DNA of 32,000 bases from Gemmata obscuriglobus (GTDB lineage: Bacteria > Planctomycetota > Planctomycetia > Gemmatales > Gemmataceae): positions 3,840,001-3,872,000 of the forward strand of contig NZ_CP042911.1 of assembly GCF_008065095.1 (NCBI RefSeq), written 5' to 3'. Below the pieces are notes generated by a model. It saw only the letters and a list, made by a program, of their open reading frames with translations. It did no database searches and had not been told where the DNA came from. A program made the position numbers and the translations under genes. Position 1 is the stretch's first letter, and every line of letters starts with the position of its first letter. This document shows, piece after piece, positions 1,171-26,613 of the stretch.

Positions 1171-3015
1171 ATGGTTTTTCCGGGGCCGCACCACATGACC
1201 CGATTGCTCTCCGCGCTCCTGACCGCCCTCGCGGGGGCGGTTGTGTCCGTGTCGGTCGCGCCCGCCGCGCCGGTCGAGGTGGACCGGTCCGTCCTCGACG
1301 CGCAGAAGCAGCGCATCGCGGCCATCAAGAAGGTTCACCCGGCGGTCGTGGCGGTGTGCATGCCCGACGGCGGCGGGTGCGGGTCCGGGGTGCTGATCGA
1401 CCCCGAGGGGTACGCGCTTACCAACTTCCACGTCGTCCAGCCGACCGGGCCGTTCCCCACCGCTGGGCTCGCAGACGGTGTGCTCTATCAGGCCGTCGTG
1501 TGCGGCATCGACAAAGTCGGGGACGTGGCGCTCATCAAGCTCGTGCCGAAAGAGAAGGGCAAGCCGTTCCCCTTCGTCCAACTCGCCGACAGCGACAAGG
1601 TGAAGGCCGGCGACTGGTCGCTGGCGATGGGCAACCCGTTCTCGCTGGCGATGGATTTCACCCCCACGGTGACCTACGGCATCGTGAGTGGTGTGAACCG
1701 CTACCAGCCGCCCGAAGGGAAGGGGCTTCTGGAGTACACGGACTGCATCCAAATCGAGACATCGATCAACCCGGGCAACTCGGGCGGCCCGCTGTTCAAC
1801 ATGAACGGCGAACTGATCGGTATCAACGGCCGCGGGTCGTTCGAGAAGCGCGGCCGCGTGAACTCCGGGGTCGGCTACGCGATCTCGATCAACCAGATCA
1901 AGAACTTTATGGGGCACCTGCGGGCGGGGATCGACTCCGACCACGCCACCCTCGGCGCCTCGGTCGGCTCCGGGAGCGACGAAGGGCAGCTCCCGGCGAT
2001 GGTGGTCAAGCAGATCCTGGAGGAGAGCGACGCGGCGCGGCGCGGGATCGAGAACGGCGATCAGTTGCTGGACTTCGGGTTCGGCCGCCCGATGACCAGC
2101 GTGAACGCGTACAAAAACGCCCTGGGCATCTACCCCAAGGAGTGGCGCGTCCCGCTCACGGTCCGACGCAACAACACGACCCAGGAGTACCTGGTGCGGC
2201 TGATGGGCAACCAGGAGAAGGAGCGGGAGCAGCCGCCGGGGGCGGGCGGGCCGCCGATGCCGCCGCAACCGGCCCCGCGGCCCGCGGCCCCCGCGCCCAA
2301 GGGCGGAGACGCGACCACCGCCGGCATGTACGTGGCGAAGCCGGGCTACTCCAACTGGTACTTCAACGCCCTCGAACGCGATAAGGTGCTGGCGGCCTTC
2401 AAAAAGCAGGCGGGCGATTTCTCGGCGGTGCCGAACTCGCTGCTGATCGAGGGCGCGTTCAAAATGCCCGACCGAGAAGGGCCGATGCGGGCCGAGGTGG
2501 TCGAGGCGAAGGACGGGGCGAAAATCGCTCTCAAGCTGAACATCGAGACCACCCTGGAGCCGCTGAAGCAAAGCGACCTCACGCAGCAGAAGATGCCGCT
2601 CGGGAGCGGCGGGCTGATGATGGCGCTGTACCACTACCACCGGTTCCTGGCGCTCGGCGAGAAGGGGTTCGAGGGGCTGTTCGCGCACGGGGGTAACGAG
2701 CCGTTCTACCCGTACCCGGTGGACGGGAGCGTTCCGAAGTCGCTCGCGGCGCTGCGGGTCGACTGCGCGGTGCTCCTGACCAAGCACGGATCGGTTGACG
2801 GCAAGTGGTACTTCTCCCTCAAGGACCACACGCTCTTGGGCTTGGAGTGCTACGTTGCGAAGGACTCGAAGGACGGGCTCGAAGCCGACCCGTGCGAACT
2901 GTACTTCTCGAGTTACAAAGACTTCGACGGGCGGAAGCTCCCGACCCGCATTGAGGTCCGCTCCAGCGACAAGCGGTATGCGGTACTCGAGACCGCGAAG
3001 TGGACACTCAAGTAG
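1171..3015 (+). CDS. HtrA/DegP-like (S1C) trypsin-fold serine protease with a PDZ-like segment and a ~240-aa C-terminal extension; predicted active
   Basis: ATG at 1171; an alternative ATG at 1195 gives the signal peptide MTRLLSALLTALAGA. Triad motifs are intact: ALTNFHVV (His), GDVALIKL (Asp), GNSGGPLF (Ser). TAG at 3013-3015. Confidence 0.85.
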   Translation: MVFPGPHHMTRLLSALLTALAGAVVSVSVAPAAPVEVDRSVLDAQKQRIAAIKKVHPAVVAVCMPDGGGCGSGVLIDPEGYALTNFHVVQPTGPFPTAGLADGVLYQAVVCGIDKVGDVALIKLVPKEKGKPFPFVQLADSDKVKAGDWSLAMGNPFSLAMDFTPTVTYGIVSGVNRYQPPEGKGLLEYTDCIQIETSINPGNSGGPLFNMNGELIGINGRGSFEKRGRVNSGVGYAISINQIKNFMGHLRAGIDSDHATLGASVGSGSDEGQLPAMVVKQILEESDAARRGIENGDQLLDFGFGRPMTSVNAYKNALGIYPKEWRVPLTVRRNNTTQEYLVRLMGNQEKEREQPPGAGGPPMPPQPAPRPAAPAPKGGDATTAGMYVAKPGYSNWYFNALERDKVLAAFKKQAGDFSAVPNSLLIEGAFKMPDREGPMRAEVVEAKDGAKIALKLNIETTLEPLKQSDLTQQKMPLGSGGLMMALYHYHRFLALGEKGFEGLFAHGGNEPFYPYPVDGSVPKSLAALRVDCAVLLTKHGSVDGKWYFSLKDHTLLGLECYVAKDSKDGLEADPCELYFSSYKDFDGRKLPTRIEVRSSDKRYAVLETAKWTLK

Positions 3016-3133
3016 GCGGTAGCGGGCGACGGGCTCGCACGGGGCCGCGCCTCGTGCGGGTGTCGCCTTCATGCCGTGATTGGTTGGTACGAACGCACTC
3101 CGGCCCTGCTCGCCACAAGCACGACGATCACCC

Positions 3134-4321
3134 ATGCTCACGCGATACTCAGCACTGCTTGCCGTTGTGACGGTTTTCGCGGCGCCGGCGGCCGGTCGGG
3201 CGGCCGATCCGTTCGCCGAGACCGTGGACAAGGCCAACCGGAAGCTCGTGAAGATCTTCGGGGCCGGCGGGTTCCAGCGGCTCAACAACTACGGCACCGG
3301 GATCGTCATCAGCAGCGAGGGCCACATCCTCACCGTCGCGAGCCAACTGCTCGACACGTCGGACCTGGTGGTCCACATGCACGACGGGCAGCGGCTCCGA
3401 GCGCAGGTGGTCGCGACCGAACCGCTGCTCGACGCCGCGCTCATCAAGATCAAGGTCGAGGGCAAGAAGATCGACGAGCCCAACGGGCTGAACCTCGGCG
3501 AGAAGGAGTACTTCAACTTCGAGGAGGCGGTGAAGCGCGGCCCGGCGGCCCCGGGTGACTGGGTGCTGGCGCTGAGCAACACGTTCGAGATCGCGCTCCG
3601 CGAGGAGTCGCTCAGCGCGCAGCGCGGCGTGATCTCGGCGTACACGAAAATGGCCGGCCGCCGCGGCATCTTCGAGTTCCCGTACACCGGCGAGGTGTAC
3701 GTTGTGGACGCGATCACCAACAACCCCGGCGCCGCCGGCGGCGCGCTGCTCACCCGCAAGGGCGAACTGATCGGCATCATCGGCCGGGAGATCAAGAACA
3801 CGCTCACCGAGACCTGGATGAACTACGCCATCCCGATCACCGGGAAGGTCGAGTTCCGGGACCGGGTCACGGTCAAGGACAAGGACGGCAAGGACGTTGA
3901 GGAAGAGAAGACGGTCGCGGTCACGATCCCGGACTTCGTCCGGGCCGCGATGAAAGGCGAGTACAAGACGCGCAAGCGGCCGGACATCGCCGCGGGGCAG
4001 GGCGGGTATCACGGCATCGTGTTCGTGCCCAACGTGCTCGAGCGCACGCCGGCGTTCGTCGAGGACGTGGTGCCCGGGTCGCCGGCGGACAAGGCCGGGT
4101 TGCGGCCCGACGACCTCGTCAGCTTCATTGACGGCGAACCAGTGGTCAGCATCAAGGCGTTCGGCGACTTCATGCGCAAGAACACCCGCGCCGGTACCGT
4201 CGTGCGGCTCGAGGTGCGCCGCGGAGAGGCGCTCCAGACGATCGAAATGACGCTCGGGCAGCACCCGGCCAAGCCGAAGGCCCCGACCACCCCGGCGCCC
4301 CCGCCTGCTAACAAGAAGTGA
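3134..4321 (+). CDS. HtrA-like protein with C-terminal PDZ domain; predicted catalytically inactive (His->Ser, Ser->Ala)
   Basis: ATG at 3134 gives the signal peptide MLTRYSALLAVVTVFAAPAAG; the listed start at 3080 is a TTG. The HtrA layout is kept (GTGIVISSEGHILT, DAALIKI, GELIGIIG), but the His motif reads TVASQLL and the Ser motif reads NPGAAGGALL. PDZ segment: VVPGSPADKAGLRPDDLVSFIDGEPV. Confidence 0.8.
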   Translation: MLTRYSALLAVVTVFAAPAAGRAADPFAETVDKANRKLVKIFGAGGFQRLNNYGTGIVISSEGHILTVASQLLDTSDLVVHMHDGQRLRAQVVATEPLLDAALIKIKVEGKKIDEPNGLNLGEKEYFNFEEAVKRGPAAPGDWVLALSNTFEIALREESLSAQRGVISAYTKMAGRRGIFEFPYTGEVYVVDAITNNPGAAGGALLTRKGELIGIIGREIKNTLTETWMNYAIPITGKVEFRDRVTVKDKDGKDVEEEKTVAVTIPDFVRAAMKGEYKTRKRPDIAAGQGGYHGIVFVPNVLERTPAFVEDVVPGSPADKAGLRPDDLVSFIDGEPVVSIKAFGDFMRKNTRAGTVVRLEVRRGEALQTIEMTLGQHPAKPKAPTTPAPPPANKK

Positions 4322-4368
4322 ACCGGCCGGCGCGAACCGCAACTGGAAGCCACACGGGAAAGATACCG

Positions 4369-6594
4369 ATGACGCACCTGGCCCTTGACCGCGCGCGCCT
4401 GTGGGTGGCGCTGGCGGTACTCGCCGTGGCCGCAACGGCGGCCGTCGCGCAACCCGCCGCTGATGTAAACGAGGCGACCGAGAAGGCCATGAAGGCGGCC
4501 GTGGCGAAGGTTGCGCCGGCCGTCGTGCAGGTCACCATGTCCGGGGGCACCGACTTCTTCAAGGAGCAACCGAAGAACGGGCCGCCCGGCGCCCGCCCGG
4601 CGCCGGGCATGCGCAAGGGCACCGGCCCGACCACTGGGCTGATCGTGTCCCCGCAGGGGCACGTCATCACCAGCAGCTTCAACTTCGTGGGCAACAACCT
4701 TGCGGACGCGAAGCAGATCACCGCCTGTGAGGTCGCGATCCCGGGCAAGGACCGTCGGTTCGTGTACCACGTGATCGGGCGGGACGAGACCCGAATGCTC
4801 ACACTCCTGGCGCCCGCGGACAAAACCAAAGCCCCCACGGGACTGACGCCGGCTCAACCGCTGCCGAAGGCGGACGTGGAGATCGGCCAGTGGGCGCTGG
4901 CGCTCGGTCGTGCGCTCGACACGAACGTGGAGAGCTTGCCCGCGATGAGCGTCGGCATCGTCAGCGCGACGAACCGAATTTGGGGCAAGGCGATTCAGAC
5001 CGACGCCAAAGCCTCACCGGTCAACTACGGCGGGCCGCTCGTGAGCGTGGACGGGCGGGTTTACGGCGTCGTCGTTCCCGCGTCGAGCCGGGCCGAAGGC
5101 GAGACCGCCGGCGTGGACGTGTACGACGGCGGCATTGGTTTCGCCGTGCCGCTGGAAGACGTTCTCAAGGTCCTGCCCAAACTGCAACAAGGTACCGGTG
5201 AGAAACCGGTCGTTCTGCGCCGCGGGCTGCTCGGAATCACGCAACAGGGCACCGGGATGTACATCCCGCCGGTCGTCGGGTCCGTTCAGCCCGATTCGGC
5301 CGCCGCCCGCGCCGGGATCAAGGTGGGCGACACCATCACCGAAATCAACGGGACGAAGGTGCCGACGTATTCCACCCTCCAGCACGTGATGGGGCCGCTC
5401 TACGAAGACGACGTGATCTCGCTGAAGGTCTCACGTGGCGGTAAGGACGTTGAATTTAAAGGCGTTAAGTTGCTCGGTACGAGTGCCGCGTTCGTGAGCG
5501 CGTACTTCGGCGTGCTGCCGATGCGCGACGATCCGGGACCGGGGGTTGAGGTCCGCTTCGTGTACCCCAAGAGCCCCGCCGACACCGCGGGCATTAAGGC
5601 CGGCGACCGGATCATGAAGTTCGGCCCCGGCACACCGGTACCGGTCCAGAACCGCCAAGCTCTCATGCAGGTGGCGCAGCGCCTCACGCCCGGCACCGAG
5701 GTGAAGGTCGAGGTGAAGCGTAAGGAAGGCGGGAAGGTCGAAACGCTCACCACCACGCTCACCCCGGCTCCGAACGAGGTGCCTGAGAAATTGCCGCTGC
5801 CCTCCAGCGCGGGGAAAGCCCTCGAAGGGCAGCCGAAACCGAAGGAGAACCCGAAGGATCCGTTCCCCAAAAAGGACCCGTTCGGCAAGGCACCGTTCTC
5901 GGACGTGCGCGCGGAGACACAAGACGAGAAGAAGGACGACCCGAAGAAGGACAAGCCGAAGGTCGAAACCGGCTTCCTGACCCGCAACGACCAGGCTCTC
6001 GGGCGCGAATACTGGCTATACGTGCCGGACAATTACGACGCAAACGTGTCGCACGGGTTGGTCGTGTGGTTCCACCCCGCCGGGCAGGGAGGGAAGGATG
6101 GTGAGAAGATGTCCACGACGTTCCGCAACTTTGCCGAGGACAATCACTTCATCGTGATGGGGCCGAAGGCCGGCGCCGAGGCCGGCTGGCGCCCGGGCGA
6201 GACGGAACTCGTCGTGAACGATGTGAAGGCCGTGATGGGGGAGTACACGATTGACAAAACCCGCGTGGTGGCCCACGGGTTGGGGAACGGCGGTGAGATG
6301 GCGTTCTACGTCGGGTTCAACGCGCGCGACCTGTTCCGCGGTGTCGCCCCGGTCGGCGCCGCGCTCGGCAACCCGCCCAAAGACAACATCCCCAACCAGC
6401 CGCTGTCGTTCTTTATAACCGCTGGTGACAAGGACCCGCTGCTGAAGGACATCCAGGCCAGCCAAAAATTGCTGGCCGAGCAGAAGCGGTTCCCAGTGAT
6501 CTTTCGCGAGATGAAGGAGTCGGGCAAGGAGTACTACGACCAGCGCACGTTCACCGATTTCCTGAACTGGCTCGACTCGCTCGACCGGATCTAA
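4369..6594 (+). CDS. Multidomain secreted protein: degenerate HtrA-like domain, two PDZ domains, a Lys/Pro-rich linker and an esterase-like alpha/beta-hydrolase domain lacking the Ser nucleophile
   Basis: ATG at 4369 gives MTHLALDRARLWVALAVLAVAATAAVA. An alternative GTG at 4318 overlaps the upstream TGA (GTGA). The protease-like motifs are degenerate (TSSFNFV, VNYGGPLV). PDZ segments: DSAAARAGIKVGDTITEING and KSPADTAGIKAGDRIMKFG. C-terminal esterase-like motifs: HGLVVWFHPAGQGG and VVAHGLGNGGEMAFYVG. TAA at 6592-6594. Confidence 0.8.
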   Translation: MTHLALDRARLWVALAVLAVAATAAVAQPAADVNEATEKAMKAAVAKVAPAVVQVTMSGGTDFFKEQPKNGPPGARPAPGMRKGTGPTTGLIVSPQGHVITSSFNFVGNNLADAKQITACEVAIPGKDRRFVYHVIGRDETRMLTLLAPADKTKAPTGLTPAQPLPKADVEIGQWALALGRALDTNVESLPAMSVGIVSATNRIWGKAIQTDAKASPVNYGGPLVSVDGRVYGVVVPASSRAEGETAGVDVYDGGIGFAVPLEDVLKVLPKLQQGTGEKPVVLRRGLLGITQQGTGMYIPPVVGSVQPDSAAARAGIKVGDTITEINGTKVPTYSTLQHVMGPLYEDDVISLKVSRGGKDVEFKGVKLLGTSAAFVSAYFGVLPMRDDPGPGVEVRFVYPKSPADTAGIKAGDRIMKFGPGTPVPVQNRQALMQVAQRLTPGTEVKVEVKRKEGGKVETLTTTLTPAPNEVPEKLPLPSSAGKALEGQPKPKENPKDPFPKKDPFGKAPFSDVRAETQDEKKDDPKKDKPKVETGFLTRNDQALGREYWLYVPDNYDANVSHGLVVWFHPAGQGGKDGEKMSTTFRNFAEDNHFIVMGPKAGAEAGWRPGETELVVNDVKAVMGEYTIDKTRVVAHGLGNGGEMAFYVGFNARDLFRGVAPVGAALGNPPKDNIPNQPLSFFITAGDKDPLLKDIQASQKLLAEQKRFPVIFREMKESGKEYYDQRTFTDFLNWLDSLDRI

Positions 6595-6708: not shown

Positions 6709-7344
6709 TCACTTCAGTTCAACGTTCCAGTAGGCGTTGTCGATGAACGACTGCCACGACTGGTACTTCTTCTGAGTCAGCTTGAGGTTCAACAGCGGGC
6801 TGCGCTTCGGCTTCTCCGGCTTGCGGATCAGCGTCATGTTGGCCTGACGCGGGGTCCGTCCGCCCTTGCGAACGTTGCAGTCCACGCAGGCGCAGACGAT
6901 ATTGTCCCAGGTGGTCCCTCCACCTTGCGAGCGCGGGGTCACGTGGTCCAGCGACAGTTCCGTGGTCGGGAACTTCTTCCCGCAGTACTGGCACTGGTTG
7001 TGGTCGCGGGCGAAGATATTCCGCCTGTTGAACTTCACCGTCTGCTTGGGCATCTTGTCGTAGCCGAGCAACCGGACGACCCGCGGCGACAGCAGCTCCG
7101 AACTCGCGGTGCGGACCCAGTCGTCGTCCTCCTGGCGGAAGTTGGCGGCCCGGAACGCGCTAAGCTCCGACCACGACTCGAAACTGTATGTCGCGAACTG
7201 CCCCTCCTCCATGCTGACCACTTCGGCCAAGTTCTTGCACAACAGGCAGAACGCTCGACGGACGGAGATGACGTGTACGGCCATGAACGTCTTGTTCAGC
7301 ACCAACACGCTCGAGTCAAGGGCCGAGTACGAGCCGACATTCAT
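6709..7344 (-). CDS. HNH endonuclease (widely conserved ~200-aa standalone family)
   Basis: ATG at 7344 (MNVGSYSALDSSVLVLNKTF); the listed start at 7395 is a TTG. HNH core: CQYCGKKFPTTELSLDHVTPRSQGGGTTWDNIVCACVDCNVRKGGRTP. Confidence 0.85.
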   Translation of the reverse strand: MNVGSYSALDSSVLVLNKTFMAVHVISVRRAFCLLCKNLAEVVSMEEGQFATYSFESWSELSAFRAANFRQEDDDWVRTASSELLSPRVVRLLGYDKMPKQTVKFNRRNIFARDHNQCQYCGKKFPTTELSLDHVTPRSQGGGTTWDNIVCACVDCNVRKGGRTPRQANMTLIRKPEKPKRSPLLNLKLTQKKYQSWQSFIDNAYWNVELK

Positions 7345-7578
7345 AGCGGTCCGGCCTTTCTCAGTTAGGTGCGGCCCGGCGTCGGCGAAGGGCAACGACC
7401 GCGGGGGCCACTCGTCAAGAGGAGAGGCGCGAGCGGGCGAACAGGTTCGTCCCCAGGGACATCATAACCGCACGTTTTGACGCCGTGCAAGTGCCGACAA
7501 GCCCGGTTCGTCGCCGGTTTCACACAGACTTCACCGGGTGACGGACCAGCCGGTACGAGCGCAAAAATCGGACGCTCT

Positions 7579-8736
7579 TTAGGGCCGACACACGTGCCTG
7601 GCGAGTCGGGCGGTCGATTCGGTAAGTTCACTGTCGGTGCCGACGACCCGGAGGCGGTAGCGGGTCACCCGGACGAGCCCGTTCGGCGTGGCGAACGTCG
7701 CGCGGCCGTCGGTGCGCCCCGGGTACACCAGACCCACCCGCGGCGCACCGGTCAGCCCGGCGTAAGCCAGCACTTGGTGAAGGTCGGCCGGGTCGAGAGC
7801 CGTCGTCTTCCATTTGGCGTCGAGTACGCCGCGCGCGACGGCACGCTTACGGACCAGCACGTCGGGGCGCAGGGTCACCGGTCCGAGTGCGAACGCGGGG
7901 TGTGCGTCAACAGACCACCCAGGGCGATCCGCCAGCTCGCGCCGCAGCGAGCGAAAAAGGTACCGCTCGAACGCTTGGCCCAGATCGAGCAGGAACGCGT
8001 CCGAACCGGTTCGGAGCGGGTCGGCAACTGAGAAGCCCTGTTGAATGATAGCGCAGAGGTCAAGCAGCGCGTGGTAGCCGACCGCGCGGGGCTCTGTCCG
8101 GGCCGCGCTGAAGTCGGCGTCGGTGCCGTGGACGTTCGGTACCTCGGCGAGCGGGCGGGCCGCTGTTTCGATGCGTTCGCGCGTCGCGCGGGGCACATCG
8201 GGATGTGTGCCGAGGGTCGTTGCAGCAGACCGGGCGATACGGTTCCACGGGGTGTTCAGGTCGAACGACGGTTCGTCGATGTGGAAGTGCCCGGGAAACG
8301 CCTGGCTCGCGGCGTCGCGCATTTGCGCGGCCGTCCGGAGCTTGCCGCGCAGGAACGGCGACACCGACTCGACCTCGCCATACCCTGCGACCAACCCGGC
8401 GCGCGCGACCGCTTCGAGTTGATCCGCAAAGGCCGTAGCCAGTGTGCCGAGCAGCCCACCTTCGGGGATGCGTGTGGTGCCTCCGGTTGGGTGAACGCCG
8501 GAACCGAGAAGGAACTGGAGGTTCGGCCACGGGATTTTCGGCCCGATGAGATAGCGCGCGGCCGGACCGGTGAAGAACCCGACGTAGCCGCGGGGGGTGA
8601 GCGTGTACGTACCGCGCTCGAAGGTGGGACTGATGTCGATCAAGTGCCGCGCGGGGCCGAGCAGGAAATCGACCTCGGCGCGCGGGAGCTTGACCGCGCG
8701 TGGTCGCCGTTCGGTCAGGGCGATCGTGCGCGTCAC
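7579..8736 (-). CDS. mcrC: McrC-like PD-(D/E)xK nuclease subunit of a McrBC-family system
   Basis: GTG at 8736 overlaps the upstream TGA (GTGA), with GAGGAG 11 nt upstream; the listed start at 8784 is a TTG. McrC-type motifs: RGYVGFFTGPAARYLIGPKIPW, FLLDLGQAFERYLF, RPDVLV..GVLDAKWK, DLHQVLAYAG. Confidence 0.8.
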   Translation of the reverse strand: MTRTIALTERRPRAVKLPRAEVDFLLGPARHLIDISPTFERGTYTLTPRGYVGFFTGPAARYLIGPKIPWPNLQFLLGSGVHPTGGTTRIPEGGLLGTLATAFADQLEAVARAGLVAGYGEVESVSPFLRGKLRTAAQMRDAASQAFPGHFHIDEPSFDLNTPWNRIARSAATTLGTHPDVPRATRERIETAARPLAEVPNVHGTDADFSAARTEPRAVGYHALLDLCAIIQQGFSVADPLRTGSDAFLLDLGQAFERYLFRSLRRELADRPGWSVDAHPAFALGPVTLRPDVLVRKRAVARGVLDAKWKTTALDPADLHQVLAYAGLTGAPRVGLVYPGRTDGRATFATPNGLVRVTRYRLRVVGTDSELTESTARLARHVCRP

Positions 8737-10256
8737 GGGTCGTTCATCTCCTCGGCTGGTGCGCGTCGCTGGTCCGGGTTCCAAAGCTGATAGCCGGCAC
8801 CTTGCCCTGTCCCGCTCTCGTCAAGTTCTTTGGAGGGCGAACTGGGCGGTGAATTCGGCCAGAAGTACGTCACGGCAACGCGATCCGGGTGCGTGCGGTA
8901 CACCGGCGGCTGGCCATCGAACGGCCCGACGGGCACCGCGGGTAAGAACGCCGGCACTAATTCGGCAAGCGCGCGCGGGAAGCGGCCTGTCTTGATCCGG
9001 TGTCGTTCGCACGCGAGGCATACCGACGCTGCAAGCAGATCGGCGCGCGTCTGAAGTGACCTCTCGGCGATGCGCTCGAACGCAGGGATCATCCGACGCA
9101 TCACGGTGTACCGAATGTCGATCGGTGGGCCGCTCGGAATTTGTATCTTTTTGAGCGCGGATAACTGTTCGTGTGGAGGCAAATTCGACACCGCAACGCA
9201 CTGAGAGCAAATCTCCAGGCACTTCGCCCGGTCTCCAGGAAGTAGCGCTTTGTATGCCCGAAACGCCGCATAGTGAGCCGGCTTTGGCGCCCCAAACCCC
9301 GCGTAGTTGAACAGGCTCTCCAGCGGGATCGTTTCGTTCTGAACTCCGGTGAAGAAGTGGTCGAGCATCGCGCGCTCGCCGCGCATCCCGTACCGGAACC
9401 AAGGCACATCCGCTTCCGTAAGTAGCTCGGCTTGCAGTTCCGCGAGCTCGTCGGTCGGTTCGCCCCACGCGAGCGTTTGCATCGTACTGTCCGCCGCCGC
9501 ACGAGCGCAGGAGATGCGCGTCATCTGCGAGAGGAGTACCGGTTCGTCACCGAACGAGCGGGCGACAGCGAGCGCCGCACGGGCCGCGGTGATGCCGCGG
9601 TTGGGGTTCCCGTGCAGCGCTTCCCAACGTGCGTCGTACTCGAGCACGGTGATCACCCGCCGCGCTTGGGCCAAGTGGGGGAGCAATGTGGCAACCGGGT
9701 CCGGGCCGACCGTGAGCGGGTACGTGCCGGGCCGCTGGGCGCGGCGCAGATCAACTGCGCGGTCACGCAGCGTTCGGGTCGGCTCGGCCATTTTCGCGGC
9801 GTGCGCCAGCCCATCTTTGTCGGGCCGGTGGTTGTGCGCACGCCCCTGTTGCCACCTTGTCCGAGTTAGTTCCTCTTGCCACTCGTTCCAAGGCTCTGGC
9901 ACCTCACCAGCGAGAGCGAGAACCCGCGCGTTGAGATCTCCATCGGCCGGCGGCGGCATGTGCCGGGCGCGTTCCGCCAGGACTGCGTCCAGGCGCCAAC
10001 CCGGTTCTTCGGCGTCGAGTCGCTGCATGACCCGGTCCAGTTCGCGCTGCCCCACACGGCCCACCTGCCATCGGCCGACGAACAAGACCAGCGCCACCAT
10101 TGCGACCGCGCCGCCACGCCACAGCGCGAGTTTGCGGAGCCGACGCAGGCGCGAGTGTGGAGGGGACGGCAGATCATCTTCGGGATCGGTCACGTGTGGC
10201 GCTCCGCGGTCGTTGGGCTCCCGAGATGACGCCCGCGCCGCAGCGCCGTTTCGCAC
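8733..10256 (-). CDS. Membrane-anchored protein of unknown function: one N-terminal TM helix and a large helical extracytoplasmic domain
   Basis: GTG at 10256, or GTG at 10193 with GGAG 8 nt upstream. TM segment LALWRGGAVAMVALVLFVGRW. Plausible amino-acid composition, unlike the overlapping shadow ORFs. The C-terminal motif LACERHRIKTGRFPRALAELVPAFLPAVPVGPFDGQPPVY resembles pseudopilin GspG-type motifs. The stop overlaps the mcrC-like start. Confidence 0.65.
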   Translation of the reverse strand: MRNGAAARASSREPNDRGAPHVTDPEDDLPSPPHSRLRRLRKLALWRGGAVAMVALVLFVGRWQVGRVGQRELDRVMQRLDAEEPGWRLDAVLAERARHMPPPADGDLNARVLALAGEVPEPWNEWQEELTRTRWQQGRAHNHRPDKDGLAHAAKMAEPTRTLRDRAVDLRRAQRPGTYPLTVGPDPVATLLPHLAQARRVITVLEYDARWEALHGNPNRGITAARAALAVARSFGDEPVLLSQMTRISCARAAADSTMQTLAWGEPTDELAELQAELLTEADVPWFRYGMRGERAMLDHFFTGVQNETIPLESLFNYAGFGAPKPAHYAAFRAYKALLPGDRAKCLEICSQCVAVSNLPPHEQLSALKKIQIPSGPPIDIRYTVMRRMIPAFERIAERSLQTRADLLAASVCLACERHRIKTGRFPRALAELVPAFLPAVPVGPFDGQPPVYRTHPDRVAVTYFWPNSPPSSPSKELDESGTGQGAGYQLWNPDQRRAPAEEMNDP

Positions 10257-10448: not shown

Positions 10449-13073
10449 TCAGGGCTCATCGTTCGGCACCGAGGGCTTCGGCTTGCGGCGTCTCTCGCCG
10501 GCCCCGACGAGCCGTTCCGGCGTGTAGTCGGCGAGCCGCTCCTCGCGCCCGCCGAGGTAGTCGAGCAGCACCGGGCGCACGTGGTGCGTCCACACCGCCG
10601 CCAGTTTATCGTGATCCAACTCGGGCACCATGAAGAAGCTGTGCCCGATCTGCCGGTCCGGCCCGAGGTCGCGGGCGAGCCGGCGGTTCAGTTCCTCGAA
10701 CAACAGCACCACCCGCGGGTTGAACGTCGGGTCGGTCGGTTCGGCGTCGGCGCGGGATTCGAGCCACGAGGCGAGCACCACGGCGTCCGCGGGCATGTCC
10801 ACGAACGAGAACCGCCGCCGCAGCGCGTGGTCGAGCGACACCGCCGAGCGGTCCAGCGGGTTCATCGTCGCGAGGACGAACACGTTCTCCGGCAGGCGGA
10901 ACTCGCGCCGGGAGTACGGCAGCGTGATCGCCTGGTCGCGATACTCCAGCAGGTACAGCAGTTCGCCGAAGATGCGTGAGACGTTACCGCGGTTCAACTC
11001 GTCCACGATGAGGACGTGCGGCTCGCTGGGCCGCGCGCGGGCCTGCTCGGCGAACTGGCACAGCAGCCCGTCCTCCACGGGGAACGCGATCTCGCCGCGT
11101 GCGCTCCCTTCAACCGGCCGCGCCCGGATGCCCTCCACGAACTCTTCGTAGCTGTACGAGGGGTGGAACTGGACCAGCCGCACGCAGTCGGCTCGGTCGC
11201 CCGCCAGCAGCCGCGCCAGGCACCGGGCGACGTGCGTTTTCCCGGTCCCCGGCACGCCCTGGAGCACGAGCTGCCGCTTCAACCGCAGCAGGCCGAGCAC
11301 GCGGTCGAGCCAGACTTCCGACAGGAACGTTTCGCGGTGGAACGACGCCGGGTCGTAGGGCGGGGCGCCGTCCGGGGCTCCGGCCCGGCGCGAGAGCAGC
11401 GCCCGCGGGTCGCCCTCGGCCGCGCAGGCGAACGCCGGCAGCAGCCGGTCGAAGGTGAGCAGGATTTCGCCCGTCAGGTCCTCGCGGCGCAAGAGCGGCG
11501 ACTCGGACGGCAGCCGCTTGCCGATCGCCAGCGTTTTGTGAACCGCCCACGCCCGTAGGTCCGCGGCCGACCGCACCGCGACTTCGGTCGTCAGGTCGTC
11601 GTCCGTCCAGAATCGGCACTCCGCGAACACGTTGCCCGTGTGGAGCGCGCGGAAGATTGCGTCCGCGTGTTCCTGGATGTTGCGGCGGAACTGCTTGCCC
11701 GCTTCGCGCGCCGAGCGGCCCAGGTGGAACCCGTAGTGGACTCCATCGTCCGCGACCCGAACGAAGAACTGCGCGTCCGCGCGCTTGTTCGCCAGGGCCT
11801 TCCGGTAGAAGGTGATCCACTGCACCGGCTGGTAAGGGCCGCCGCGCCCGAAGTCGTTCTTGCAGATGCTCGTGACCGCCCGCCCGCTCCGCGCGTCGCA
11901 CTCCAGGTCCCAGCCGTGCTCGCGGTTCAGGACCGGGTGGATGTACCGCTCCGCGACGGCCTCGCACAGCTCCACCAGCGGCTCGCGCAGCACGAACTGG
12001 TAGCGGTCGCGGTGCTCGGCCATCCAGTCTTTGGCGTTGGCTTCGGCCAGTTCGCCCAGGAACGCGAACGTGTCCGAGCAGAACCCCGCGAACCCGTCGC
12101 CGCCCGGCTCGGGGCACCGCGCGTCCGCGACGGCGGTCACCACGTCGGCCAGTTCGAGCGGGTGAACTTTGAAGCGGTCGCGCAGCACCGCGGAAACCTC
12201 GCACCAGAGGGCGGCGCGATCGTTTTCGGGCAGTGCGGGGAGGTACGCGTCGTCGAGGGCGGGGAGGGCGGTTTCCCAGCGCCCGTCCGGAAATGCCGTT
12301 CGGAACGCCCCGAACGCTGCGGGCGAGTCGCCGGCGGCGCTTGCGGCTGCGAACTCGCGGACCGCGTTGAGGCACTCGTCGGGGGTGGACCGCATCCGGT
12401 GGGCGAGCGGCACGCGGGTGCGCACCTCCCGCACGGCCTGCTCCACACGGCCGGGTGTCGCGGCCCACGCGAACGCGCCATCGGGGACGGAACCGGTCGG
12501 GAACTCGCGGCCACGGGTACGCGACACCCGCTCCAGAAACTGCCCGACCTCGAACGGGGGCAAGTCCGGGGCGTGCCGGCGGACCGCATCGAACCCGCGA
12601 CTCACGGCCTCAAATCGCGCGCGGACATCCGCTCCGCCGTCGCGAAGCATTCCCAGCCTTTGGAGCCCGGTTTCCGTAGCCGGGCACCACACCGGACCGG
12701 TATCGGGATCAATGCGACTGAGTATCGCGGACCAGAACGCCGGCCCGAGTCCCGGGAGGGTGTACACCCCACCCGGTGTCAGACAGTGCGCCAAACGGTC
12801 CGGGAGCGGATCGCTCGCGCGCACGAGGTGGTTCAGCGCGTGCCGGATCAATCGCACCCGCTGCGACACAAGTTCGGGGCGAAATAGAATCGGTTGTGTC
12901 GTGCGGATAAAGGTGTCGAGGGCGGTCGCCAATTCTTCGTCGGTGGCACTGTCGAGAAACCGGACGTTGAGACGAGCCGGCGCAGACGCGAATGGAGCCA
13001 CTCCTCGGGCCGCGCGAAACGCGGTCAGAAGTGGAGCCAAGGGTAACACACGTAATCGAAACCCGGACGACAT
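10449..13073 (-). CDS. mcrB: McrB-family AAA+ GTPase with a long N-terminal extension (unknown helical region plus DUF2461-like module)
   Basis: ATG at 13073; the listed start at 13151 is a TTG. McrB signatures: LQGVPGTGKTH (Walker A), HVLIVDELNRGNVSRIFGELLYLLE, VLATMNPLDRS, DHALRRRFSFV. DUF2461/TIGR02453-like stretch: FLGELAEANAKDWMAEHRDRYQFVLREPL, ICKNDFGRGGPYQ, FFVRVADDGVHYGFHLG. Confidence 0.85.
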   Translation of the reverse strand: MSSGFRLRVLPLAPLLTAFRAARGVAPFASAPARLNVRFLDSATDEELATALDTFIRTTQPILFRPELVSQRVRLIRHALNHLVRASDPLPDRLAHCLTPGGVYTLPGLGPAFWSAILSRIDPDTGPVWCPATETGLQRLGMLRDGGADVRARFEAVSRGFDAVRRHAPDLPPFEVGQFLERVSRTRGREFPTGSVPDGAFAWAATPGRVEQAVREVRTRVPLAHRMRSTPDECLNAVREFAAASAAGDSPAAFGAFRTAFPDGRWETALPALDDAYLPALPENDRAALWCEVSAVLRDRFKVHPLELADVVTAVADARCPEPGGDGFAGFCSDTFAFLGELAEANAKDWMAEHRDRYQFVLREPLVELCEAVAERYIHPVLNREHGWDLECDARSGRAVTSICKNDFGRGGPYQPVQWITFYRKALANKRADAQFFVRVADDGVHYGFHLGRSAREAGKQFRRNIQEHADAIFRALHTGNVFAECRFWTDDDLTTEVAVRSAADLRAWAVHKTLAIGKRLPSESPLLRREDLTGEILLTFDRLLPAFACAAEGDPRALLSRRAGAPDGAPPYDPASFHRETFLSEVWLDRVLGLLRLKRQLVLQGVPGTGKTHVARCLARLLAGDRADCVRLVQFHPSYSYEEFVEGIRARPVEGSARGEIAFPVEDGLLCQFAEQARARPSEPHVLIVDELNRGNVSRIFGELLYLLEYRDQAITLPYSRREFRLPENVFVLATMNPLDRSAVSLDHALRRRFSFVDMPADAVVLASWLESRADAEPTDPTFNPRVVLLFEELNRRLARDLGPDRQIGHSFFMVPELDHDKLAAVWTHHVRPVLLDYLGGREERLADYTPERLVGAGERRRKPKPSVPNDEP

Positions 13074-13174
13074 CTTACAACGTCTCGCGAAGCGAGGAAC
13101 GGGGTAGATCGTATCAGATTTGAGTGCTGCTGAAGAGGTGGGTTTCGACAAAGAGACGTGAACTTGGCAGAAAC

Positions 13175-13238
13175 AAAAAAGTCCCGCCGGAGGTCACTAC
13201 AGCGTCGCCCATTCACTGTAGGTACCAACCGGCGGGAC
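13175..13238 (-). terminator. Terminator-like branched hairpin followed by a T6 run on the minus strand, upstream of the mcrB-like gene
   Basis: The minus strand reads GTCCCGCCGG - 38 nt containing a CTACAG/CTGTAG sub-hairpin - CCGGCGGGAC - TTTTTTGTTT. The outer stem is 10 bp (13181-13190 with 13229-13238). Confidence 0.4.
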
Positions 13239-13386
13239 AAAGGAATAATACACCGGCTTTTTTCAGAGGCAAGCTGACTGTCTGTTTTTTCGGCGGATCG
13301 CGGCCTCGTGTCCGAAAAGCCGACACCGCTAACGCCCAGTACGGCCTGGATTTGGACGCTTGCCAAATATCTAAACAATAAGATCG

Positions 13387-13427
13387 ATGTGCCGCATGAT
13401 GTCGCCCGTTGCAGCCATGCGGCGCAT
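13387..13427. other. 12-bp hairpin (one G.U pair) with a 17-nt loop in an AT-rich intergenic region
   Basis: ATGTGCCGCATG (13387-13398) pairs with CATGCGGCGCAT (13416-13427). The loop carries GTCGCCCGTT, which resembles the loop motif GTCGCCCATT of the hairpin at 13197-13221. Confidence 0.3.
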
Positions 13428-13537
13428 ATCATGGTGTAAGATAATAGTTAACTTGGACTTCATACGATCTGCACCGCTAACGAACCGTCATCGTGTAGAA
13501 ATAGTGTGATATTAGACGCCCGAGAGGGGAGCTCTCC

Positions 13538-14293
13538 GTGCTCGATGCCATCGTGATCTCGGACATCCACCTCGGCAGCGAAAACTGTCAGGCCAAGTAC
13601 CTCGCTCACTTTTTACACACCGTGCGCCGCGGCGATCTTAAAGCCCGGCACCTTGTCCTTAACGGCGATGTCTTCGATTCGATCGACTTCCGCCGGCTGA
13701 AGAAGAACCACTGGAAGATTCTCTCCGAGCTACGGAAGCTCGCTGACGAGATGGAAGTGGTTTGGATCAACGGCAACCACGACGGCACCGCCGAGGTCGT
13801 TTCTCATTTGCTCGGGGTCCGCTGCGCGGACGAAACGGTCGTGGAGAGTGGCGGGCGGAAGATCCTCTTCCTGCACGGGCACCGGTTCGACGAGTTCATT
13901 ACCCGCTACCCGTTCATCACCTGGGTGGCGGACCGGGTGTACAACTTCCTCCAGAAGATCGACCAGTCACACACGTTCGCCAAGTTCGCCAAACAGCGCA
14001 GCAAGACCTTCCTACGCTGCACCCAAAAGATCGAGGCCGACGCGGTCAAGTACGCCGCCAAGCGGGGGTGCGACGTGGTGTGCTGCGGGCACACTCACCT
14101 TCCCGTCGCGAACGAGACCGGGCCGATCCGGTACTACAACAGCGGGTGCTGGACCGAGAAGCCCTGTCACTACCTCACGGTCGTGAACGGCGTTGTCAAC
14201 GTGTGCTCGTACACCGAAGAGGTGTCCGACGAGGTTCTCAACATGGTCGATCCGCCGGCCCTGGCGCCGGCGGTGCTGGCTTCGGTCGCGTGA
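13538..14293 (+). CDS. Calcineurin-like metallophosphoesterase (LpxH-like layout)
   Basis: GTG at 13538 with GGGGAG 6 nt upstream. Motifs: VISDIHLGS, LNGDVFDS, INGNHD, LHGHRFD, CCGHTHLP. Confidence 0.85.
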   Translation: MLDAIVISDIHLGSENCQAKYLAHFLHTVRRGDLKARHLVLNGDVFDSIDFRRLKKNHWKILSELRKLADEMEVVWINGNHDGTAEVVSHLLGVRCADETVVESGGRKILFLHGHRFDEFITRYPFITWVADRVYNFLQKIDQSHTFAKFAKQRSKTFLRCTQKIEADAVKYAAKRGCDVVCCGHTHLPVANETGPIRYYNSGCWTEKPCHYLTVVNGVVNVCSYTEEVSDEVLNMVDPPALAPAVLASVA

Positions 14294-16549: not shown

Positions 16550-17461
16550 TCACGCCGCGGTGCGGGGTTCGGGCTTGCCCTGCCGTGCGTTTTGGTCAAA
16601 TTCCCGCACCACGTCCACCGCAAATTGGATCGCGGGACCGGTCCACTCGACCATGTTGGCGGTGTAGCCTGCTTTCACTCCGGCCTGAGTGACGTGCGCG
16701 AGTAACGCGCCGACCGGGCACAGCTTTTGAGACGCAAGTTTCGCATCGTACTCGCGCAACCGGCGGTGCAACTCCTGGCCGTTCGTCGGCAGATTGACCG
16801 GCTTCCCAGCGTCCGCTTTTGCCCCTTCAGTTTTGTGTACGTCTGGGTTGGTGGGTTCGACTTTGGGCACCGCGGTGTTCGGTTGCACCGCGGCGACTGA
16901 TGGGACCGACGGCTTTGGGGGCGCTTCGGGCTTGGGCACATCCTTCTTCGGTGCGGGCGCGACAACCCCAACGGGCGCCACGTTTGCAGACTGTGATTTT
17001 GCATTCGGGAGTGCCCAGGCCGGGAGCGGCGGCGGTTGAACAATTTGCTTCTTCACCGAGTCATAATCGACCCAGGCCGCGGACAACCGGTAGAGGTATC
17101 GGCCGATGCCGAATTTCACAGCGGCGCGCTTGAGCGCGTCGCTGAACGCCGCCTTGAGGCGGTCGCCGAGATCGGGTTGCTCGCTCGGCGATCCGACATC
17201 GGTTTTGGTGATCCAGTTGTCCCCGATCTTGCAGCGGAGCTTACACATCACCGAGCCGTCCGGGAGTATCTCGTACACGTCCTCCCAGTGCTCCACACCG
17301 AGCACATCGTCCAGCCGGTCCTGAATGAGGCGGGCGTCGACATACGCCATCGCCAGACACCGGTTGTTCTTGACCATCTGCGGTTTGAACTTCACGTCGC
17401 GCGGCTCGAACGGGTCCGCGAGCGCGGCGGTGAGTGCGACGACCCGCGGGTCGCGCGGCAT
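16550..17461 (-). CDS. Rad52/Rad22-family single-strand annealing protein with a Pro-rich linker and an extra C-terminal domain
   Basis: ATG at 17461. Motifs: VKFKPQMVKNNRCLAMAYVDARLIQDRLDDVLGVEHWE and LKAAFSDALKRAAVKFGIGRYLYRL, followed by PPLPAWALP. Confidence 0.75.
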   Translation of the reverse strand: MPRDPRVVALTAALADPFEPRDVKFKPQMVKNNRCLAMAYVDARLIQDRLDDVLGVEHWEDVYEILPDGSVMCKLRCKIGDNWITKTDVGSPSEQPDLGDRLKAAFSDALKRAAVKFGIGRYLYRLSAAWVDYDSVKKQIVQPPPLPAWALPNAKSQSANVAPVGVVAPAPKKDVPKPEAPPKPSVPSVAAVQPNTAVPKVEPTNPDVHKTEGAKADAGKPVNLPTNGQELHRRLREYDAKLASQKLCPVGALLAHVTQAGVKAGYTANMVEWTGPAIQFAVDVVREFDQNARQGKPEPRTAA

Positions 17462-17640
17462 GGCGGCTTCAGTAGACACTGCGCACCCTCCCTCAACGAC
17501 TGATGTGTTGAGGGTAGTGTACGGGTGTATTTGGGGCGGGACGATGTCAGTTGGCGCTCCGGCGCGACCGATTGTTCCGGGTGTGCGGATCGGGTTGAGC
17601 GATTGCACCGCGCTGACGGCGGTGGCAGGACGAACCGCAA

Positions 17641-18360
17641 TTATGCCGCCTTGCGGGGTGCGAGTAGACGTTTCCACCACGGCAAATGCTTCGGCTTTGA
17701 TTTGGGCTTTGGCGGGGGGGGCGGTGGCTCCTCGCTTTTTTCTTCTTCCGCTTCGGTGGCCCCTTCCGATTTGGCTTCGGCCGCTTCCAGGTCGCGTGCC
17801 GACACGGCTTGCAGCAAGACGCCGAGTACGACGAAGCCGACCACCAGGCCGTTGAGCGGCGCGACGTTACGGGCGACCCAATCACCCGTATCGAGGGTCC
17901 AAACTTGCTCGGCCAGCAGTATTCCGGCGTGGCCTGCGAAGAGGACGCCCAACAGGCTGGTGAGCAGCATCGTCCAGAGGCGGTAGAGCAGGATTCCGAA
18001 CAGTCCGCCGCACAGGAACACGGCCCACAATTCTTGCGCCTGAGGGAACACCCACTGAGCCGCGAGCCATGCCCCGCAGCCGCCGGCCACGAACGCCAGC
18101 ACCTTCGCCAGTTCCAGGGCGAGTAGCCCCGCCGACACCGCCAACAGGATGCCCACCGCCATCACCTGTGTCCCGCCGGACGTCCGGCCGGCGTTCAGGC
18201 CGATGAGCCCGGACGCCAGGGTGATGCCCGCGACGACCCAGAACCGGTGCCACCGCCACCCGAACAGCCACAGCGCGACGCCAAGCACCGTAATGGTGCC
18301 GGCCATGGCACCGGTCATGCCGCGGGCCTCGGCGAGGATGTCGGGTGCGATCAACTGCAC
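17641..18360 (-). CDS. Polytopic membrane protein with a Glu/Pro/Lys-rich C-terminal tail
   Basis: GTG at 18360, or ATG at 18318 with GAGG 8 nt upstream. About 6 hydrophobic segments. Tail: EAEEEKSEEPPPPPPKPKSKPKHLPWW. Confidence 0.7.
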   Translation of the reverse strand: MQLIAPDILAEARGMTGAMAGTITVLGVALWLFGWRWHRFWVVAGITLASGLIGLNAGRTSGGTQVMAVGILLAVSAGLLALELAKVLAFVAGGCGAWLAAQWVFPQAQELWAVFLCGGLFGILLYRLWTMLLTSLLGVLFAGHAGILLAEQVWTLDTGDWVARNVAPLNGLVVGFVVLGVLLQAVSARDLEAAEAKSEGATEAEEEKSEEPPPPPPKPKSKPKHLPWWKRLLAPRKAA

Positions 18361-25199: not shown

Positions 25200-26591
25200 A
25201 TGTTTCCGCTGTTACTGCTCGCGGGTTGCGCCGGTGCGGACCCGACCCCGCCCGCCGACACGTGGCGGGGCTTCCGCAACGACGGGTCCAGTTGCACGAC
25301 CGCCCGCGACCTGCCCCTGACCTGGGGGCCGAACGAGAACGTGGCGTGGCGCGCCGCGCTGCCGGGGTACGGGCAGTCGTCGCCGGTGGTGTGGAAGGGC
25401 CGCGTGTTCGTGACCGCCGTTGAGGGGCCGGAGAAGGAGAAGTTGCTGGTCGTCGCGGTGGACGCGCGGACCGGCGCGGTGGCCTGGAAGAAGGAGTTCG
25501 CGGCCTCCCAGAAGGGGAAGAACAACCCGATGATGAGCCGCGCCGGCCCGACCCCGGTGGCGGACGCCGAGGGCGTCTACTGCCTGTTCGAGAGCGGCGA
25601 CCTGCTCGCGCTCACGCACGACGGCGGCACCCTGTGGCACCGGTCGCTCGCGAAGGAGCACGGCGAGATCAAGAACAACCACGGGCTGGGCAGTTCGCTC
25701 GCCGAGGCCGGGCGCGCGGTGTTCGTGCAGGTCGATCACGCCGGCCCGTCGTACCTGCTCGCGGTGTGCAAGGCCGACGGCAAGGAACTGTGGAAAACGG
25801 AGCGGCCCGGCCGCACGTCGTGGACCTCGCCGGTCGTCACGACGTTCAACAACAAGGCCGCGGTTCTCGCCAGCGGGGGCGGCACGCTCACCGCCTACGA
25901 CGCGGCGACCGGCAAGGAACTGGCCGCGCTCGACGGCCTCACCGGGAACACCATCCCGTCGCCGACGGCCGCCGGCGATCTGATCGCGGTCGGCGCCGGC
26001 GAGAACCGCATGAAGCCGGACCTCAAGGCGTCCGCCAAGTCGAACTGTCTGGTGCGGTTCGGCGCGCGGGACGGGAGGCCCGCGTTCGAGCCGGTTTGGA
26101 ACGGCACGAAGGCGGTCAGCCACCACGCCAGCCCGGTCGTTCACCAGGGCCACGTGTACTTCGTCACCAAACTCGGGCTCGTCCACTGCCTCGACCTGAA
26201 GACCGGGGCGGAGCGGTACGCGGAGCGGCTCGACGACGAAACGTGGGCCACCCCGGTCGGGGCCGGGGACCGGGTGTACTTCTTCGGCAAGTCGGGCGTC
26301 ACCACGGTGCTCAGGGCCGGCGGCGAGTTCGAGAAACTGGCGGTCAACCGGCTGTGGTCGAAGGAGGACTACGCGGCGCGCCTGGACGCCGCGAAGAGGG
26401 CCGCGGCGGACGCGCTGCCGAAGCCGCCGGAGGGCAAGGGGCCGGGGGGCGGCCCGCCGGTGCCGAAGGCGGAACTCGAAGCGACCCGGTACTCGGCCGT
26501 GGGCGACGTGGTGTACGGCGTCGCGGCCGTGGACCGCGCGCTGTTCGTCCGCACCGGGACCGAACTCGTTTGCATCCGCCCGGCCAAGTGA
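25200..26591 (+). CDS. PQQ-like (BamB-like) beta-propeller repeat lipoprotein
   Basis: Lipobox in MFPLLLLAGCAG. Repeated propeller motifs: SSPVVWKGRVFV, VVAVDARTGAVAWK, LTAYDAATGKEL, VHCLDLKTGAE. Confidence 0.8.
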   Translation: MFPLLLLAGCAGADPTPPADTWRGFRNDGSSCTTARDLPLTWGPNENVAWRAALPGYGQSSPVVWKGRVFVTAVEGPEKEKLLVVAVDARTGAVAWKKEFAASQKGKNNPMMSRAGPTPVADAEGVYCLFESGDLLALTHDGGTLWHRSLAKEHGEIKNNHGLGSSLAEAGRAVFVQVDHAGPSYLLAVCKADGKELWKTERPGRTSWTSPVVTTFNNKAAVLASGGGTLTAYDAATGKELAALDGLTGNTIPSPTAAGDLIAVGAGENRMKPDLKASAKSNCLVRFGARDGRPAFEPVWNGTKAVSHHASPVVHQGHVYFVTKLGLVHCLDLKTGAERYAERLDDETWATPVGAGDRVYFFGKSGVTTVLRAGGEFEKLAVNRLWSKEDYAARLDAAKRAAADALPKPPEGKGPGGGPPVPKAELEATRYSAVGDVVYGVAAVDRALFVRTGTELVCIRPAK

Positions 26592-26613
26592 CACTTCCGA
26601 GAGGGGAACGAAA

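Follow-up and report, generated by a model that had tools for sequence, protein, structure and literature searches.

What does a DUF2461 domain do in front of a McrB-type GTPase? The question is posed by one open reading frame (ORF) in a 32,000-nucleotide stretch of the Gemmata obscuriglobus chromosome (contig NZ_CP042911.1, positions 3,840,001 to 3,872,000; here called the window), which encodes a homologue of the GTPase McrB. The prototype of the type IV GTP-dependent restriction systems is EcoKMcrBC of E. coli K-12. DUF2461 domains are widespread in bacteria; to our knowledge the family has no assigned function, and it has hardly been written about. In the protein described here, which belongs to the McrB-family GTPases, a genuine DUF2461 domain and a helical region not yet characterised precede the AAA+ core, and the pairing of DUF2461 with this GTPase recurs in several phyla. 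Nucleotide coordinates are positions in the window, and residues are counted from the start codon at M27 (see below), except where ORF numbering, which refers to the 900-residue maximal ORF, is indicated.

The maximal ORF (10449..13151, minus strand) extends upstream to a TTG at 13151 and encodes 900 residues. The true start is M27 (nt 13073), where all 40 homologues in the alignment begin, leaving a protein of 874 residues. A preliminary description of this DNA had counted about 600 residues before the GTPase; with the start at M27 there are about 575. Its identification of the ORF as encoding a McrB GTPase was correct, and the peptides that it quoted are all found in the translation. The protein has a canonical Walker A sequence (GVPGTGKT) and the NxxD motif NPLD, both invariant in the family (N738 and D741 are invariant within MNPLD in the homologue alignment), and the Walker B segment VDELNRGN is invariant in 41 aligned sequences. 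Pfam places AAA_5 at residues 628-781 (ORF numbering; E 4e-18), and McrB_lid (PF28529) is recorded for McrB homologues. The NCBIfam model of E. coli McrB, PRK11331, matches residues 607-849 (ORF numbering; the C-terminal 243 residues) with E = 4e-42. This match covers model positions 176-419 of 459 and scores under the equivalog cutoff, as expected because the N-terminus differs. As judged from sequence, every defining feature of a McrBC system that can be checked in this way is present.

The DUF2461 domain had been proposed at residues ~353-575 (nt ~11427-12095), and PF09365 indeed matches within this span, at residues 361-572 (ORF numbering; nt ~11436-12071), with E = 2.6e-14 and 54.1 bits against a gathering cutoff of 22.8. 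The match runs over model positions 2-204 of 208, and a linker of ~25 residues separates the domain from the GTPase. The corresponding NCBIfam model, TIGR02453, gives a weak score (37 bits against a cutoff of 105). When an AlphaFold2 model of the domain was compared with the PDB by Foldseek, the best matches were 3mqz and 2a8e (both with probability 1.00; target template modelling (TM) scores 0.59 and 0.66), two structural-genomics DUF1054 proteins, of which 2a8e is B. subtilis YktB. A further match, to Pyrococcus PF0168 (1yb3), has a probability of 0.72. The preliminary description had suggested structure and profile searches of the N-terminal segments; for DUF2461 these found the DUF1054 fold, and for the region upstream of it they found no significant match.

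Alignment with stand-alone members shows that F328, F338, W350, L369, P380, Y414, W419 and G448 are conserved throughout McrB-linked and stand-alone DUF2461 sequences, and that E391, K/R405, N406, R424, D433 and Q435 are conserved within the McrB-linked set. The aromatic and polar residues at these positions (W350, Y414 and W419, together with those of the McrB-linked set) would suit a binding pocket. The signature of the family, RxxRDxRFxxDKxPYK, is seen in two stand-alone proteins (P0268 and P0269) as I(N/Y)RD(I/T)RF(P/S)KDKSPYR. It varies in the McrB fusions.

The helical region before DUF2461 (residues ~27-350 in ORF numbering) had been called unrecognised, and it has remained so. Pfam gives no match for residues 1-322 even at E <= 10, whether N1, N2 or the two together are queried, and at the E cut-offs used neither NCBIfam nor PADLOC holds a family that matches the N-terminal region. 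The region is nevertheless a real, conserved domain and not a spacer, because 24 of its positions do not vary among 14 sequences with identities down to 35%. An AlphaFold2 model of residues 1-578, built from a 41-sequence alignment, has a mean predicted local distance difference test score (pLDDT) of 87.4 and a predicted TM score of 0.82; the latter suggests that N1, N2 and DUF2461 pack into a single compact unit and are not strung out as separate beads. Residues 1-326 modelled alone reach a pLDDT of 91.7. N1 is more basic in the window protein (isoelectric point (pI) 11.0) than on average in the family (8.7).

Within N1, the sequence YTLPGLGPAFWSAILSRI had been described as reminiscent of helix-hairpin-helix (HhH) DNA-binding elements. 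It is placed between two helices, and in addition to the invariant residues of the hairpin itself, W129 and P131 of N1 are invariant. In very distant relatives, no part of N1 is better conserved than the hairpin and the helix after it (GLGxAxxTxILxxxxPxxYxVWNxxSExGLxxLG), which points to a functional element. The case for an HhH element comes from the conserved G-h-G hairpin; profile and fold comparisons gave no significant similarity to an HhH family. Alignment by hhalign of the N-terminal profile with the E. coli EndoIII sequence pairs only the 9-residue hairpin (probability 0.16). Compared by eye with EndoIII, the position where the catalytic Asp would fall is Cys or Ser in N1 (WCPA), in a region that hhalign leaves unaligned. 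Foldseek searches of the N1/N2 model against the PDB gave no significant structural neighbor; MutY N-terminal domains are the only biologically sensible matches to recur, and these are weak (probability 0.15-0.35, TM-score 0.22-0.32). A search of the model of the N-terminal region plus DUF2461 against a viral structure library found nothing. Searches of PDB sequences and profiles with the N-terminal region, with DUF2461 only and with broadened DUF2461 profiles returned chance-level matches only (CRABP2, bS20, SNARE). The helix-hairpin-helix idea is therefore best read as a motif-level resemblance around the hairpin and not as a family assignment. In N2, the segment beginning IEQAVREVRTRVPLAHRMR (residues 208-260; 12294-12452, minus strand) weakly resembles bS20, an RNA-binding helical ribosomal protein (profile E 0.27; Foldseek match to 8cwo_T with probability ~0.2). 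This is a curiosity.

How widespread is the architecture? A homologue search with residues 1-574, with matches clustered at 90% identity, returned 226 clusters. Among the 120 of these that were listed, nearly all full-length members consist of the query region with DUF2461, followed by AAA_5 and McrB_lid, and the named members are all Gemmataceae, the best match being 97% identical and from Gemmata algarum. A word-indexed homologue search with the N-terminal profile returned 7 fragments only. When one representative genome of each GTDB species was scanned, the N-terminal region together with DUF2461 was found in at least 102 of them. Essentially all of the 80 species listed belong to Gemmata, Frigoriglobus, Urbifossiella, Fimbriiglobus, Zavarzinella or Limnoglobus or are unclassified metagenome-assembled genomes (MAGs) of Gemmataceae or Gemmatales. 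A few MAG records with the module are labelled Alcaligenaceae, Acidobacteriota, Singulisphaera or Isosphaera, and these odd labels are probably binning or labelling errors.

The DUF2461 part has a much broader distribution. HMMER, run exhaustively with a profile of this segment only against 1.84 billion representatives of 50% identity clusters, gave 777 matches at E <= 1e-3, 189 of them at E <= 1e-10. Hidden Markov models of N1, N2, DUF2461 and the GTPase were then mapped on the best 147 of the 777. In this set, DUF2461 lies directly before a McrB-type GTPase in 78 of the 87 proteins of at least 450 residues. Its start in the fusion proteins ranges from residue 1 to residue 984, and minimal members of 520-565 residues consist of DUF2461 and the GTPase with no other N-terminal domain. 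An N1-like domain occurs in 23 proteins, one of which is in a cluster with a Promineifilum (Chloroflexota) protein. Pfam confirmed DUF2461 plus AAA_5 in 11 of 19 representatives scanned, and revealed HARE-HTH (P0197), DUF7664 (P0177) and Mrr_N (P0212) as further partners of DUF2461; a precomputed table adds DUF8426 (P0228). In one protein (P0223; L088 6001-8178) DUF2461 is fused to a NERD nuclease and there is no GTPase; the neighboring genes encode an integrase, Fic, PIN, a SNF2 helicase and an MmeI-like enzyme. The survey of DUF2461 architectures that the preliminary description had called for has thus uncovered dozens of McrB GTPase fusions as well as nuclease and DNA-binding partners.

Named DUF2461-McrB members come from Acidobacteriota, Candidatus Eisenbacteria, Chloroflexota and Planctomycetota. 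In the four McrB contexts outside Gemmata that were read, mcrC directly follows mcrB in every case, overlapping or abutting it, and two of the four resemble defence islands, with helicases, Eco57I-type enzymes or a DUF3427 helicase with an HTH-M78 pair. The McrB-linked branch of DUF2461 is firmly tied to restriction and defence. Within a McrB subclass that is found in several phyla and whose N-terminal additions vary, DUF2461 plus the GTPase forms the invariant core. The proposal of a new McrB class holds in the sense that the subclass is undescribed and spans several phyla; the class is not specific to the window, and the idea that DUF2461 defines its specificity has been weakened. As a side observation, a stand-alone DUF2461 protein near the McrB-linked branch (L090 2-328, on one short contig) lies directly downstream of a gene whose product resembles, by eye, a MazG-type nucleotide pyrophosphohydrolase.

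The fusion is visible in databases but has gone unexamined, since these proteins are just auto-labelled "DUF2461 family protein" or "McrB family protein". No publication was found that describes the DUF2461-McrB architecture or the Gemmataceae locus. Full-text literature on DUF2461, TIGR02453, PF09365 and COG5587 yielded only four incidental mentions and no functional work, in line with the earlier statement that the family has no established function, and the literature on YktB/DUF1054 is likewise incidental, with no functional data. DUF2461 is also absent from the text and supplements examined of the 2024 McrBC census, which defers classification of fused specificity domains (PMC11090510).

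What, then, might the protein do? A tentative answer is that it is at once the motor and the target-recognition subunit of a GTP-dependent type IV restriction system of the McrBC type, with DUF2461 acting as the target sensor. The N-terminal 575 residues (N1, N2 and the divergent DUF2461) would form a compact recognition head. The conserved G-h-G hairpin of N1 probably grips the DNA backbone, and DUF2461 would be a pocket-type sensor of a nucleic-acid target (a base or nucleotide feature). Upstream DNA-binding modules, whether N1, Mrr_N or HARE-HTH, may help in target engagement; DUF2461 would couple this engagement to assembly of the McrB ring and GTP hydrolysis, and McrC, with its PD-DxK motif, would then cleave. 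In this picture the identities and folds of the domains, their conservation, the operon partners and the distribution are observed; that N1 binds DNA, that DUF2461 senses a ligand and that this is coupled to the GTPase, we infer. DUF2461 is taken as the target sensor because it is the sole domain in the reader position of the minimal members. That it engages the target itself is argued by the same minimal proteins together with the NERD fusion, in which it accompanies a second kind of nuclease.

Several observations weigh against this reading. DUF2461 is probably not an exchangeable specificity module, because it stays constant beside the GTPase and Mrr_N or HARE-HTH lies upstream of it, so that it could be an adaptor rather than a reader. 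Its signature is degenerate in the window protein (SICKNDFGRG--GPYQ), where only I, K/R-N and P-Y are kept, and the domain is acidic in most long-form proteins, with a mean net charge of -9. The fold relatives YktB/DUF1054 and PF0168 bring no functional clue, and N1 shows no significant similarity to any DNA-binding fold in profile, Foldseek or hhalign comparisons. Finally, the system is inherited vertically across a whole family as part of the core chromosome (see below), which is atypical for a defence gene.

Some of these same facts would be expected if DUF2461 were an adaptor or regulatory module and target recognition fell to the upstream modules alone (N1/N2 here, Mrr_N or HARE-HTH elsewhere). 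The domain may then control hexamer assembly, the interaction with McrC or the GTPase, possibly through a small molecule or protein. This is a possible explanation, though a less probable one than sensing; both roles are inferred. It would account for the constant position, the short linker to the GTPase and the variable N-termini, as well as for the degenerate signature, the presence of bona fide type IV reader domains upstream of DUF2461 in some proteins, and the basic, hairpin-bearing nature of N1. The charge of DUF2461 also differs, with a mean of +0.25 in minimal forms (n=8) and -9.3 in long forms (n=44; Mann-Whitney p = 0.001). However, the N-terminal extensions of the long forms are equally acidic; the difference in charge is thus shared by other parts of these proteins and does not decide the role of DUF2461. 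Also against an adaptor are the minimal DUF2461-GTPase proteins, which are paired with McrC and have no other candidate DNA-binding domain, and the DUF2461-NERD fusion, which has no GTPase to regulate. The role of sensor or reader is the one favored here.

The genes that accompany mcrB in the window bear on whether the system restricts DNA at all. As in other McrBC systems an mcrC gene is in the same cluster, but it is not adjacent to mcrB: a gene for a protein of 507 residues (X507) intervenes, and a gene for an HNH endonuclease follows (Table 1).

Table 1. Features of the mcrB homologue and of the conserved gene cluster, in window coordinates
Feature	Position	Strand	Basis
mcrB homologue, 874 residues	10449..13073	-	ORF; start from homologue alignment; Pfam and NCBIfam matches
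N1, basic all-helical domain, residues 1-190, pI 11.0	12504..13073	-	AlphaFold2, pLDDT 92; without family match
HhH-like hairpin YTLPGLGPAFWSAILSRI, residues 104-121	12711..12764	-	Y104, G108, G110 and W114 invariant in homologue alignment
N2, second helical subdomain, residues 200-322	12108..12476	-	AlphaFold2 models
Divergent DUF2461 domain, residues 326-572, alpha+beta fold	11358..12098	-	Pfam PF09365, Foldseek, alignment with stand-alone members
McrB-type AAA+ GTPase, residues 576-860	10494..11348	-	Pfam, NCBIfam, alignment, translation
Walker A GVPGTGKT	11235-11258	-	Direct translation
NxxD motif NPLD	10851-10862	-	Direct translation
X507, 507 residues, N-terminal membrane anchor, between mcrB and mcrC	8733..10256	-	ORF; conserved position
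mcrC homologue, PD...DAKWK nuclease motif	7579..8736	-	PF10117, E 6e-32
HNH endonuclease, last gene of conserved cluster	6709..7395	-	PF14279, PF01844

X507 has a basic N-terminal tail followed by a hydrophobic segment. It matches nothing in Pfam, NCBIfam or PADLOC, and among the homologues found its family, paralogues included, is confined to Gemmataceae. The nearest homologue is 21 residues shorter as annotated, and this would put the start near nt 10193. The TGA stop of X507 overlaps the likely GTG start of mcrC at 8736 (GTGA, 8733-8736), and the same 4-nt overlap occurs in Gemmata SH-PL17, which has two X507 paralogues. The nuclease motif of McrC, PD...D(A)KWK, is invariant in 36 orthologues. 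For the HNH gene, the orthologue in Gemmata sp. SH-PL17 is 17 residues shorter (211 residues), which implies that the window gene starts at the ATG near 7344.

When the window proteins were compared by tblastn with 83 related loci, the order mcrB - X507 (one or two copies) - mcrC - HNH was found to be kept down to 42% McrB identity, and upstream genes for Metallophos, MFS and Rad52 proteins are syntenic within the group of Gemmata, Frigoriglobus and Urbifossiella. The possibility that X507 is an essential third subunit was considered and set aside: five of the Gemmataceae loci have mcrC straight after mcrB without X507, so X507 is not obligatory. The HNH protein is 77-99% identical across Gemmataceae, as against about 40-97% for McrB and about 30-95% for McrC. 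Pairwise McrB distances correlate with those of McrC (rho 0.94), the Metallophos neighbor (0.85) and HNH (0.77), which indicates vertical co-divergence. Not every locus is complete. Six (L002, L022-L025 and L038) have an intact mcrB with N1, N2 and DUF2461 but no mcrC, X507 or HNH gene within 10 kb downstream, and in Limnoglobus roseus the HNH gene directly follows mcrB, an XhoI-like restriction-modification (R-M) pair comes next, and mcrC is absent there.

Given this pattern, the Gemmataceae system might have been domesticated. Its McrB, whether or not joined by McrC, X507 and HNH, would then serve in housekeeping metabolism of DNA or RNA and no longer in restriction. At least 102 species representatives of the Gemmataceae carry the system, which is syntenic with Metallophos, MFS and Rad52 genes, diverges in step with an unrelated neighbor and in several genomes has intact mcrB with no mcrC nearby. 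The other genes of the window are housekeeping genes (HtrA proteases, a pseudouridine synthase, an rRNA-type methyltransferase, DUF1559 proteins and CobW), and PADLOC assigns the McrB homologue to no McrB-type family, giving just weak REase_II matches in the AAA+ region, and has no match for McrC. Domestication is nonetheless unlikely. The GTPase and McrC nuclease motifs are strictly conserved, the closest relatives outside Gemmata belong to canonical mcrBC pairs and lie in defence islands, an XhoI-like type II R-M pair abuts the cluster in Limnoglobus, and vertical retention is compatible with a role in defence. Because nuclease and GTPase are intact and relatives lie in defence contexts, ordinary restriction is the more likely function.

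The last alternative, that the DUF2461 match arises by chance or from composition in a GC-rich, Arg/Ala-rich protein, could appeal to the TIGR02453 score far under its cutoff and the unconserved signature motif, but it is effectively refuted by a Pfam score 31 bits over the gathering threshold with 203 of 208 model positions covered, by the same match in every homologue and in distant fusions, by the AlphaFold2 fold that resembles DUF1054 structures (probability 1.0) and by the alignment of the domain with canonical stand-alone members.

Some other features of the window can be recorded here. The GC content falls to 0.555 at 13001-14000, compared with about 0.65-0.71 elsewhere in the window; this low-GC stretch takes in the intergenic region that separates the divergent mcrB and metallophosphoesterase genes and extends into the first half of the latter gene, and a sigma-70-like site lies upstream of mcrB at 13245-13272 (minus strand). 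The Rad52/Rad22-family protein (PF04098, E 1e-12) that is syntenic with the locus in Gemmata-like genomes is encoded at 16550-17680 (minus strand). Three consecutive genes on the plus strand (1171-3015, 3080-4321 and 4318-6594) encode trypsin-like, HtrA-like peptidases, the last two with PDZ domains. Two adjacent ORFs of 463 residues each at 25200-28005 (plus strand) may be tandem paralogues; the first encodes a PQQ/BamB-like beta-propeller, and for the second Pfam gives no match.

The evidence can be drawn together in a wider proposal, which is more doubtful than the sensor role alone: a fold shared by DUF2461, YktB and PF0168 would sense features of nucleic acids (a modified base, a nucleotide or a DNA end) and gate nucleases of the McrBC and NERD types, and the Gemmataceae would have fixed such a system, with a membrane partner and HNH, as a vertically inherited module of the core genome. 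If true, this would provide the first function for a large orphan superfamily. Through its McrB GTPase neighbor and the NERD fusion, DUF2461 acquires a testable context, that of nucleic-acid surveillance, and the minimal two-gene versions (a McrB of about 545 residues plus McrC) are tractable for testing restriction targets. The subclass adds an undescribed class to the McrBC census, and the Gemmataceae locus is a rare case of a McrBC system kept vertically across a whole family, which bears on how defence genes are fixed or repurposed. The interest of the N-terminus as such is moderate because the N-termini of McrB proteins are known to be highly variable.

How does the system compare with those already known? 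With McrBC of E. coli K-12 it shares the AAA+ GTPase with Walker A, Walker B, NxxD and RRRF motifs, a McrC with a PD-(D/E)xK nuclease, the position of mcrB upstream of mcrC, and an extra region N-terminal to the GTPase. This region, however, consists here of about 575 residues in the order N1-N2-DUF2461, whereas the E. coli protein has a 5-methylcytosine reader of ~160 residues (DUF3578/ADAM), and the folds are dissimilar. The Gemmata locus also differs in having X507 between mcrB and mcrC and HNH after them, and in being vertically inherited in the core chromosome.

Alternative readers are known in other McrB homologues, among them the YTH-like domain of Thermococcus gammatolerans, fusions with EVE, PUA, Mrr_N and HARE-HTH, and the CoCoNuT systems (PMC11090510). 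These have in common with the present protein a conserved GTPase behind an exchangeable N-terminal module, and some DUF2461-McrB proteins carry Mrr_N or HARE-HTH themselves. Unlike the exchangeable modules, DUF2461 is constant, and the GTPase signature here is NxxD in contrast to NxD in CoCoNuT. DUF2461-McrB thus differs in its N-terminal modules from E. coli McrBC and from the YTH, EVE, PUA and CoCoNuT variants alike.

The individual domains can be compared in the same way. Stand-alone DUF2461/TIGR02453 proteins (~220 residues) have the homologous domain, with the F..F..L, W, Y..W and G positions in common, but the domain of the window protein has other residues in place of the RxxRDxRFxxDKxPYK signature, is fused to a GTPase and scores under the TIGR02453 cutoff. 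YktB/DUF1054 (2a8e, 3mqz) and PF0168 (1yb3) share the fold of the DUF2461 part in Foldseek comparisons, at about 16% identity and with no sequence-profile link. N1 has no significant profile or fold similarity to the HhH-GPD glycosylases (MutY, EndoIII); what it shares with them is an LPGxG hairpin between two helices, together with weak matches to the MutY N-terminal domain.

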